Of a DNA stretch of 64,000 nt, positions 21,744 through 22,556 are shown in pieces; position 1 is the first letter of the stretch; every line of letters starts with the position of its first letter. This stretch comes from a phage. The position numbers and the translations under genes were made by a program. The notes beneath the pieces were generated by a model. The model was not told the origin of the DNA and made no database searches. It saw only the letters and a list, made by a program, of their open reading frames with translations. The stretch lies in sequence record NC_094493.1; one strand, 5' to 3'.

Positions 21744-21818
21744 GCCCTGTTAGCTTAGTGGATAAAGCAGCGGCCTTCTAAGCCGTTGACACTGGTTCGA
21801 GTCCAGTACGGGGTGCCA
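21744..21818 (+). tRNA. tRNA-Arg (anticodon UCU)
   Basis: Manual cloverleaf: 7-bp acceptor with G-U pairs, anticodon loop CTTCTAA, T-loop TTCGAGT, encoded CCA. Confidence 0.65.
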
Positions 21819-21822
21819 AATT

Positions 21823-21909
21823 GGGGAGTTATCCCGTAGAGGTAGCGGTGTAGACTGTAAATCTATTGTCATTGCGACTCGGGTGGTTCGACTCCACCAC
21901 TCCCCACCA
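21823..21909 (+). tRNA. tRNA-Tyr (anticodon GUA), long variable arm
   Basis: Acceptor GGGGAGT/ACTCCCC, anticodon loop CTGTAAA, T-arm GGTGG-TTCGACT-CCACC, CCA. Confidence 0.65.
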
Positions 21910-22023
21910 AATTTATATTTTTAGATGCATAAATAATACAGATAATGGCATTGATATTTATCGTCGTTTATACTAGTCACTAACTGCTCGAAAATCAGTG
22001 TCATTATCAGTATAATTTATAAA

Positions 22024-22114
22024 GGAGGGTAGGGAGCAATGGTGCTCAAGCGGTCTTGAAAACCGTCCCGTTGAGGATGACTCGATGATGGTTCGATTCC
22101 ATTACTCTCCGCCA
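22024..22114 (+). tRNA. tRNA-Ser (anticodon UGA), class II
   Basis: Acceptor GGAGGGT/ACTCTCC, anticodon arm GCGGT-CTTGAAA-ACCGT, long variable arm, CCA. Confidence 0.6.
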
Positions 22115-22212
22115 CATTGTTGACCTTGTAATTAAGCGAAAGCCGGAAGCAGAACCGGATTATCAAATGTTACAGTCGTCATCGCCGACTAGCAACATGG
22201 TCAACATACTGA

Positions 22213-22312
22213 GCTAGGTAAGCCCTTTGGCAAGGGCGAGGATTTTTAATCCTGAAAATAGACGAGGTAGTCGTTGAATACATAGGTGGTTCGATTCCAT
22301 CACCTAGCACCT
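22213..22312 (+). tRNA. Atypical tRNA-like element, possibly Lys(UUU)-like or a pseudo-tRNA
   Basis: Canonical acceptor (GCTAGGT/ACCTAGC), D-arm and T-arm, but the middle has a short-stem hairpin with loop TTTTTAA and about 30 nt of extra sequence before the T-arm; no encoded CCA. Confidence 0.35.
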
Positions 22313-22316
22313 TTTT

Positions 22317-22392
22317 GCTGATGTAGCACAATCGGTAGTGCAATTGATTTGTAATCAATAGGTTGTAGGTTCAAGTCCTGCCATCAGCACCA
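22317..22392 (+). tRNA. tRNA-Thr (anticodon UGU)
   Basis: Acceptor GCTGATG/CATCAGC, anticodon loop TTTGTAA, T-loop TTCAAGT, CCA. Confidence 0.7.
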
Positions 22393-22393
22393 A

Positions 22394-22468
22394 GGCCCTG
22401 TAGCTGGAAGGTTCAAGCAAGCGACTCATAATCGCCAGACGGTGGTTCAATTCCACCCAGGGCCACCA
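22394..22468 (+). tRNA. tRNA with CAU anticodon (elongator Met or Ile2)
   Basis: Acceptor GGCCCTG/CAGGGCC with paired 1-72, anticodon loop CTCATAA, T-loop TTCAATT, CCA. Confidence 0.65.
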
Positions 22469-22479
22469 AATAGTAAATA

Positions 22480-22556
22480 CTCCGCGTAGCTCAGCTTGGT
22501 AGAGCGCCTGATTTGGGATCAGGAGGTCGAGTGTTCGAATCACTCCGTGGAGACCA
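22480..22556 (+). tRNA. tRNA-Pro (anticodon UGG)
   Basis: Acceptor CTCCGCG/CGTGGAG, D-arm GCTCAGCTTGGTAGAGC, anticodon loop TTTGGGA, T-loop TTCGAAT, CCA. Confidence 0.7.

Follow-up and report, generated by a model that had tools for sequence, protein, structure and literature searches.

The tRNA genes of the rV5-like phages have been on record since the description of the rV5 genome (Kropinski et al., 2013, Virol J 10:76; PMC3606486), which listed six tRNAs, argued that the Arg and Pro tRNAs aid translation, and described the tRNA with the anticodon CAU as 'Met, seemingly unwarranted'. The corresponding GenBank record (NC_011041) labels the six tRNAs and a promoter, 'P(tRNA)', at a position equivalent to that of the tRNA cluster studied here, which lies in a stretch of 64,000 nucleotides (nt) from the phage record NC_094493.1 (hereinafter the window) and holds a seventh, atypical tRNA-like gene. 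The region shows 100% identity to 'Campylobacter phage C2', 99.9% to Escherichia phage FFH2 and 98.7% to phage rV5, all members of Vequintavirus, and by these matches the window is that of an rV5/FFH2-like Vequintavirus. It shares with the rV5/FFH2 cluster (NC_011041, NC_024134) the same locus at 98.7–99.9% identity, the same six tRNAs and the same P(tRNA), but differs in the reading of the CAU tRNA, which was published as Met and is assigned here to the Ile2 type. The rV5 paper (PMC3606486) makes no mention of a seventh element, of structured spacers or of RNA-repair genes. The six tRNAs, their promoter and the codon-usage rationale were already published in 2013; new here are the Ile2-type assignment, the codon enrichment figures, the placement of spacers, an open reading frame (ORF) and a terminator in the transcription unit, and the apparently phage-restricted tRNA-like family to which the seventh gene belongs. 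Neither the six tRNAs nor their promoter is out of the ordinary; it is the seventh gene that deserves attention. Taken together, we consider it probable that the locus comprises a codon-supplementation operon, a non-decoding tRNA-like seventh gene and an independent repair module.

Among better studied clusters, that of phage T4 has five of the six anticodons of the window (Arg-UCU, CAU (Ile), Thr-UGU, Ser-UGA and Pro-UGG), but lacks Tyr and has Gly, Leu and Gln instead. It likewise includes rnaC and rnaD (species 1 and 2), small stable RNAs that are not tRNAs, and a tRNA-like T arm forms the end of rnaC. Rnl1 and a polynucleotide kinase-phosphatase are encoded in other parts of the T4 genome. 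In other phages, tRNAs have been tied to immunity: the strongly expressed tRNA-Tyr of T5/SP15 rescues infection from retron-Eco7 (PMC11555353), variants of the T5 tRNA-Lys, Thr and Asn neutralize PARIS, whose AriB component cuts U36-AAUC/A41 at the slash (PMC12409363), and escape of tRNAs by anticodon-loop mutation has been proposed (PMC10264068).

The seventh gene of the window combines a 7-base-pair (bp) acceptor stem and D and T arms with an anticodon arm of 15 nt (AGGA-UUUUUAA-UCCU), a variable region of 31 nt and a 3′ end reading A73-CC-U. Its minimum-energy fold is the cloverleaf (z −3.7), and it reaches 35.5 bits on the Rfam tRNA model (gathering score 29 bits), with a deletion in the anticodon stem in the cmscan alignment; its relatives fall below the threshold or remain unmatched. 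GenBank records name it 'tRNA-OTHER' in Murica and 'tRNA-Lys' in phages of the BASEL collection and others, the latter being a tRNAscan-SE call. The four-base 'atcc' anticodon offered by ARAGORN requires an AUUUU/AAAAU stem that is not conserved in the relatives and is therefore an artefact. Similarly discarded were terminator-like matches within the element (22222 and 22283), which are its D arm and its T/acceptor arms standing before U runs, and the tRNA-Arg and tRNA-Ser labels under some BLAST matches, which belong to the preceding gene.

Searches with this element recovered homologs in five genera of the Vequintavirinae (Vequintavirus, Avunavirus, Seunavirus, Mydovirus and Henunavirus), in one N4-like phage of the Schitoviridae and in further contigs of IMG/VR and metagenomes, with no match in 185,579 bacterial and archaeal genomes. 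When 21 pairs were tested on 16 distinct sequences (7 in the acceptor stem, 4 in the D arm, 4 in the anticodon stem, 5 in the T arm and the tertiary pair 19:56), every pair was formed in every sequence (100% of 336 cells), whereas all four slid or shuffled controls fall far below this (shuffles 83.5 ± 1.3%; slid registers 34–45%). Compensatory double changes are seen in 10 of the 21 pairs, and the elbow pair G19:C56 itself becomes U19:A56 in six sequences. A covariance model of the family scores its members at 91–120 bits, including five held out from its building, as against at most 27 bits for ordinary tRNAs, and finds exactly one copy per phage. The full pairing, the compensatory changes, the separation by the model and the single copy per phage thus point to a discrete, selectively maintained family of L-shaped RNAs and not to a pseudogene; the seventh gene is a member of this apparently phage-restricted and apparently undescribed tRNA-like family.

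The anticodon arm has 15–16 nt in every member of the family, against 17 in a canonical tRNA. The loop reads UUUUUAA in the window, UUUAUAA in Av-05, CAUCCA, CAGCCA, CCUCCA, CCUCAA or CUUCCA in Seunavirus/Mydovirus-type members, and (C/U)AUCAAA in the Erwinia and N4-like members, where it is annotated as 'tRNA-TERM suppressor'. With at least eight different loops across the family, several of them with A33 or of only 6 nt, the anticodon is not conserved among orthologs. The variable region (31–40 nt) consists of the single-stranded conserved flanks GAAAAUA and (G/A)AAUACAU around a hairpin whose position is constant but which five or more unrelated sequences have been used to form. The 3′ end is U73-CCA in most genera and A73-CC-U in the rV5 type, and CCA is lost in Av-05.

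Comparisons with known unusual tRNAs set the family apart. A tRNA-Sec identity was rejected: members with a UCA loop reach 31–39 bits on RF01852 against a threshold of 47, the long-armed Ser and Tyr tRNAs of the window also match this model below its threshold, and the 7/5 acceptor/T geometry with U73 is not Sec-like. A relationship to T4 rnaC/rnaD was likewise dropped, as the family model matches only the T4 tRNA-Thr and tRNA-Leu at about 25 bits; unlike those RNAs, which share no sequence or model similarity with the element or the spacers, the element keeps a complete cloverleaf. Mukai and colleagues reportedly described, in 2017, bacterial allo-tRNAs that are class II tRNAs with 'wrong' anticodons. 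In the nematode nev-tRNAs (PMC3333845), a conserved extra-arm tRNA body carries anticodons of unrelated amino acids, much as the family of the window has UAU, UCC/GCC-like and UUU triplets. However, both nev-tRNAs and allo-tRNAs have arms of 5 bp and 7 nt and are aminoacylated, whereas the tRNA-like family has arms of 15–16 nt, often A33 or 6-nt loops, and longer unpaired flanks of the hairpin.

Several individual phages merit separate mention. Salmonella phage UTK0002, an N4-like podovirus of the Schitoviridae (L020:403-510 / L056:36356-36463), has a member scoring 109.8 bits inside its tRNA cluster; as this phage is unrelated to the Vequintavirinae, the tRNA-like gene has evidently been transferred horizontally between phage families. 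In phage V18 (L006:1451-1547), tRNA-Tyr (its 5′ half) and the tRNA-like element (its 3′ part) are fused by a deletion that took out Ser, and Pro is absent. Salmonella phage PVP-SE1 (L007:5689-5774) encodes an 86-nt 'tRNA-Lys' with a perfect CUUUUAA loop and about 10 extra nt between the D arm and the anticodon stem, called tRNA-???(ggca) by ARAGORN; with it, the subfamily has a second kind of Lys-type RNA that is not canonical. In Av-05 (L003:1605-1790) and KE22 (L004:3117-3290), a non-coding stretch of about 180 nt directly follows the family member, and its two ends look like the separated halves (5′ and 3′) of one tRNA, being complementary at the termini and having pieces like D and T arms, as though a large insert had split a tRNA.

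With a tRNA body under strong selection, an anticodon arm that is 1–2 nt short and a loop that varies between genera, the seventh gene would not be a standard decoder; most likely its RNA would act through its tRNA shape, handled or bound by tRNA-recognizing proteins, and not via a fixed codon. We lean towards such a role without decoding, conscious that tRNAscan-SE-based annotations call the gene tRNA-Lys and that U33, UUU, A37 and A73 are all present, so that a decoding role in the rV5 lineage is possible. These residues are what LysRS needs. That the element of the rV5-like phages is a working, if structurally unusual, tRNA-Lys(UUU), serving the demand of Lys codons, escaping nucleases directed at Lys tRNAs, or both, appears rather unlikely to us, even though its stem-loop GA-UUUUUAA-UC differs from that of Escherichia coli K-12 lysT (GA-CUUUUAA-UC) solely at position 32, with the closing A31-U39 and C40 the same. 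Also in its favor, AAG shows the second largest per-1000 excess of any codon in the phage (+16.8), AAA and AAG together make up 67.9 per 1000 codons in the phage versus 46.0 in the host, the C41 of the element matches the A41-to-C change that inhibits AriB cleavage, and the rV5-like phages are without another Lys tRNA. Yet an arm of 15 nt would place a 7-nt loop on a 4-bp stem, CCU is encoded in place of CCA, and the 31-nt variable region has long single-stranded flanks that, to our knowledge, are unlike those of any class of decoding tRNA. Moreover, the sister lineage represented by Av-05 has UAU for UUU, U73 and no CCA, with the fold kept by compensatory changes, and other genera have 6-nt loops or A33, which suggests that selection does not act to keep the identity of the anticodon.

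The failure of ARAGORN to assign the element, its low Rfam score, the loss of CCA in the rV5 and Av-05 lineages and the deletion in V18 might be taken as marks of a decaying, functionless tRNA pseudogene. This explanation is strongly disfavored and in our estimate most improbable, for it would have to accommodate complete pairing in all 16 sequences with compensation extending to a tertiary pair, a variable hairpin repeatedly rebuilt at one place, and the retention of a single copy per phage across five Vequintavirinae genera and a Schitoviridae phage. A more elaborate proposal, which we put forward as speculation with little expectation that it holds as a whole, is that the seventh gene represents a hitherto undescribed class of tRNA mimics in phages: a constant L-shaped body with a hairpin flanked by G-AAAAUA and AAUACAU would present the short, rapidly changing arm as swappable bait, fitted to the tRNA nuclease or other tRNA-binding factor in use in a given host lineage, and the rV5-like copy would mimic tRNA-Lys(UUU) beside Thr-UGU, these being the prime pair of PARIS targets, as a nuclease-resistant Lys decoder or a competitive decoy. 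What GenBank records variously label tRNA-Lys, tRNA-OTHER, tRNA-TERM or not at all is one conserved, covarying family with a single copy per genome, known from five or more genera of the Vequintavirinae and from one N4-like phage. Should its RNA indeed be a mimic aimed at tRNA nucleases or tRNA-binding enzymes of the host, it would be a new player in the contest between phage tRNAs and tRNA-targeting immunity, in phages that are easily grown and engineered; should it serve in nothing but processing or stability, the Lys or suppressor tRNA label ought at least to disappear from annotation pipelines.

As for the remaining genes of the cluster, ARAGORN returns seven tRNA-type genes at exactly the positions proposed in an initial annotation made from the sequence of the window, all on the + strand (Table 1). 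The six tRNAs that it took for canonical are indeed so, with one refinement concerning the CAU tRNA: each folds into a cloverleaf in which D and T arms accompany an acceptor stem of 7 bp and an anticodon stem of 5 bp whose 7-nt loop has U33 and a purine at 37, ends in NCCA, and aligns over its full length with its K-12 counterpart (argU, tyrU, serT, thrU, the tRNA-Ile with CAT anticodon, and proM). Thr, Arg, Pro and CAU score 60–77 bits on the Rfam tRNA model, and Tyr 29.9 bits; an Rfam YrlA match at 22421-22533, which reached 25 bits where 69 are required, was set aside as tRNA-likeness spread over two tRNAs. The closest E. coli match of the CAU tRNA is the annotated tRNA-Ile with CAT anticodon (81.6% identity), with an identical anticodon arm (AGCGACUCAUAAUCGCC) and an identical acceptor stem, and its G1-C72 pair indicates that it is not an initiator. 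On the strength of these identities, we assign it to the Ile2 type and not to Met, and it should read AUA once modified: presumably, its C34 is converted to lysidine by TilS, which recognizes the arms found identical here, and it is then charged by IleRS. This removes the 'unwarranted' member and leaves the set as a clean case of codon supplementation.

A role of the tRNAs in serving codon usage had been proposed in the initial annotation along with a codon-usage comparison as a check, and it is strongly supported by the comparison of 66 long ORFs of the window with 42 annotated K-12 genes. The phage/host enrichment is strongest for AGA (12.9-fold), AGG (10.7-fold), AUA (4.7-fold), ACA (4.3-fold) and CCU (2.9-fold), in a phage with a G+C content of 43.6%. 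The Watson-Crick cognate codons of the six tRNAs rank 1, 3, 4, 11, 16 and 27 among 59 codons by this enrichment, and their mean log2 value of 1.64 is reached by only 64 of 100,000 random sets of six codons. Further, the right-hand arm of the window, with its genes for lysis, terminase and structural proteins, uses AGA, AGG, AUA, UCU and ACU more often than the early, left-hand arm. Together with the similar tRNA set of T4, this is the classic picture of codon supplementation, and we regard it as likely that the six canonical tRNAs serve mainly to this end. In this scheme, the operon would make the six elongator tRNAs Arg-UCU, Tyr-GUA, Ser-UGA, Thr-UGU, Ile2-CAU and Pro-UGG, whose main job would be to top up the decoding of codons that are over-used in the phage and for which the tRNAs of E. 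coli are scarce, above all AGA/AGG, AUA and ACA, and then CCU, UCU and ACU. Some observations sit less comfortably with it: the Pro codon CCA (rank 27) and the Tyr codon UAC (rank 16) are weakly enriched, the codons readable by Pro-UGG total 35.3 per 1000 in the phage against 42.9 in the host, and the host reference is small while the phage ORFs were called heuristically. Moreover, V18 is a viable isolate without Tyr, Ser, the tRNA-like RNA and Pro, which implies that the benefit of the cluster is conditional, and codon supplementation is in any case compatible with a supply of tRNAs against defense.

The latter could even be the main function, with the phage tRNAs replacing host tRNAs destroyed by tRNA-targeting defense while a ligase, kinase and phosphoesterase reseal others; we find this doubtful as the principal explanation. 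Candidate adversaries are PARIS AriB (Lys-UUU and Thr-UGU), retron-Eco7 PtuAB (Tyr) and PrrC/RloC (Lys), and the precedents of the T5/SP15 tRNA-Tyr and the T5 tRNA-Lys, Thr and Asn (PMC11555353, PMC12409363) lend it substance, as do the presence of Tyr, of Thr-UGU and of an adjoining RNA with a Lys-UUU-like stem-loop behind a promoter with a consensus −35 element, and a healing-and-sealing gene set in the same genome. Like the PARIS-neutralizing tRNAs of T5 (Burman et al., 2024; PMC12409363), the window has a Lys-UUU-type stem-loop with C41 beside Thr-UGU, and among the RNAs of the cluster compared with the AriB-inhibiting change it is only the Lys-like element that has C41. However, the T5 tRNAs are canonical and were shown to work in translation, whereas the putative Lys-like RNA of the window has a non-canonical arm and variable region, and there is no tRNA-Asn in the cluster. 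The class of escape by loop mutation (van den Berg et al., 2023) also finds no counterpart here: the anticodon loops of Arg, Tyr, Ser, Ile2 and Pro are identical to those of K-12, and that of Thr differs from thrU solely in C32 to U, keeping the full AriB site UAAUC/A (U36-AAUC-A41), unlike the escape variants of T5. With five of the six loops identical to the host and the sixth differing at position 32 only, the signature of such escape is absent. Arg-UCU, Ile2, Ser-UGA and Pro-UGG, furthermore, are not known targets of the named systems, yet are exactly the decoders that are rare in the host; the repair cassette and the tRNA cluster are distributed independently of each other; and the PARIS and retron papers (PMC11555353, PMC12409363) do not mention rV5-like phages. 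Replacement by sheer supply, for example, of Tyr against retron-Eco7 or of Thr and the Lys-like RNA against PARIS, is possible, and the Lys-like loop of the element is the sole positive sign of a role in anti-defense. Codon supplementation by the canonical six, therefore, is the function that we retain.

The kinase, phosphatase and ligase that the initial annotation had reported near the cluster hold at the level of families by Pfam and PHROG, lying 2.9–4.0 kb upstream of tRNA-Arg, and together they plausibly form an RNA healing-and-sealing set; sequence searches of the PDB with the kinase, phosphoesterase and ligase returned no relative with a defined activity. The set resembles T4-type repair (Pnkp and Rnl1) in its Rnl1-family ligase, but differs in having separate genes for the kinase and the phosphatase candidate, which is a binuclear metallophosphoesterase. 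T4 Pnkp, by comparison, is one fused protein with a P-loop 5′ kinase and a 3′ phosphatase of the DxDxT acyl-phosphatase type. The split layout of the window is like that of the bacterial healing enzymes of the Pnkp/Hen1 type.

The tie to tRNA protection that had been suggested for these genes found no support in the comparisons made. A promoter of the kinase (TTGAAA-17-TATACT, 17779-17807) lies within the 100 nt that separate the kinase gene from the divergent ligase gene, where bidirectional promoters had been expected and none found (PMC3606486). The repair genes are placed where two transcription units diverge, and four or more other promoters intervene between them and the tRNA unit. The ligase is known from 764 records of phages of unrelated groups, often with a phosphoesterase and an ATPase adjoining, and in the N4-like UTK0002 the tRNA-like RNA is accompanied by ten tRNAs but by no homolog of the ligase, the kinase or the phosphoesterase. 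The separate promoters, the widespread cassette and UTK0002 leave the link between repair and tRNAs resting on proximity, the pattern of co-occurrence speaks against an obligate coupling of the two, and the three genes would constitute an independent healing-and-sealing module outside the tRNA unit. Phage V18 keeps the kinase and phosphoesterase, and its Rnl1 ligase frame is split in two (L055:4430-5364); this split and the deletion in its tRNA cluster could be either a natural knock-out or a sequencing error. Next to the ligase, on the − strand at 14956-16444, a Sir2-family protein (Pfam SIR2, 7e-28) and a nucleotide pyrophosphohydrolase (rV5 label) are encoded, and with the ligase these look like a small counter-defense or nucleotide-metabolism neighborhood.

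The tRNA operon itself would be an early unit driven by host RNA polymerase from the promoter at 21657 to the terminator ending at 22959, and the individual tRNAs would presumably be released from its primary transcript by RNase P of the host and by enzymes that process 3′ ends. The promoter had been described as the cluster's own; the TTGACA/17 bp/TAATAT element is present as stated and unchanged in the diverged relatives L045 and L046, but it is better seen as the final member of a tandem series of sigma-70 promoters on the + strand (18104, 18792, 20640, 21252 and 21657). The pattern TTGACA-N16-18-TAnnnT has 16 matches in the window versus 3.0 ± 1.9 in shuffled versions, none of 100 shuffles scoring as high. 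A second, internal promoter before tRNA-Ser (TCGAAA-17-TATAAT, 21988-22016) was not accepted as a conserved element, its −10 sequence reading GTGTTG in L045 and L046. Between the tRNAs lie two structured spacers, both conserved, with blastn matches within Vequintavirus only. The consensus fold of spacer 1 has 31 pairs, with one compensatory change from C-G to U-A and several G-U-compatible changes. In spacer 2, which has no match in Rfam and is not recognizable as a tRNA, the closing stem covaries, reading GUUGACC/GGUCAAC in the window, AGGAUCA/UGAUCCU in L046 and GGAUCAUG/CAUGAUUC in L045. Probably, the two serve as elements of processing or stability. A homology of spacer 2 to the non-coding regions of about 190 nt that follow the element in other genera was not upheld (local score 27 against a shuffle maximum of 30). 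At the end of the unit, Murica has a terminator annotated at the position equivalent to that of the window.

Table 1. Features of the tRNA unit and of the RNA-repair genes, with positions in the window
Feature	Position	Strand	Evidence
RNA ligase, Rnl1 family	16800..17735	-	Pfam RNA_lig_T4_1 9e-15; phrog_562 4e-66
P-loop kinase-like ATPase	17836..18246	+	Pfam AAA_33 1.7e-10; phrog_505 polynucleotide kinase 4.7e-10
Calcineurin-like metallophosphoesterase	18254..18808	+	Pfam Metallophos / Metallophos_2; phrog_547 5e-51; PDB 1xm7 7e-11
Sigma-70-type promoter of the tRNA unit, TTGACA-17-TAATAT	21657..21685	+	Promoter scan; rV5 P(tRNA); conserved
tRNA-Arg(UCU), reads AGA/AGG, CCA encoded	21744..21818	+	ARAGORN; Rfam tRNA 67.8 bits
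tRNA-Tyr(GUA), long variable arm, CCA encoded	21823..21909	+	ARAGORN; Rfam tRNA 29.9 bits
Structured spacer 1, long hairpin with 15-bp core GAUAAUGGCAUUGAU/AUCAGUGUCAUUAUC	21929..22020	+	Fold z-score -4.2
tRNA-Ser(UGA), long variable arm, CCA encoded	22024..22114	+	ARAGORN; tRNA-Sec model 41.5 bits, sub-threshold
Structured spacer 2, multi-branch RNA with 8-bp closing stem	22118..22206	+	Fold z-score -2.5
Atypical tRNA-like element (seventh gene)	22213..22311	+	ARAGORN tRNA-???; family covariance model 102.9 bits
tRNA-Thr(UGU), CCA encoded	22317..22392	+	ARAGORN; Rfam tRNA 76.8 bits
tRNA of Ile2 type (anticodon CAU), presumably lysidine-modified, CCA encoded	22394..22468	+	ARAGORN CAT; E. coli alignment
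tRNA-Pro(UGG), CCA encoded	22480..22556	+	ARAGORN; Rfam tRNA 66.4 bits
Small ORF, 89 amino acids, phrog_8729 (function-unknown PHROG)	22603..22872	+	PHROG match 8e-44; rV5 label rv5_gp069
Strong intrinsic terminator, CCCCG...CGGGG then U6	22929..22959	+	Read from sequence

Two further observations concern the records and the DNA beyond the unit. At least 18 'Campylobacter phage' (Campylobacter jejuni) records in GenBank (MG065635-MG065690) are 99–100% identical across the region to rV5-like phages of E. coli, and their Campylobacter host label looks wrong. In rV5, the annotated large terminase is joined from three pieces and encloses an ORF for an HNH endonuclease; downstream of the tRNA unit, the window has ORFs at 23660-24409, 24523-25218 (231 amino acids, equal in length to the HNH ORF of rV5) and 25401-26186, and from this arrangement the stretch 23660-26186 looks like an interrupted terminase gene.

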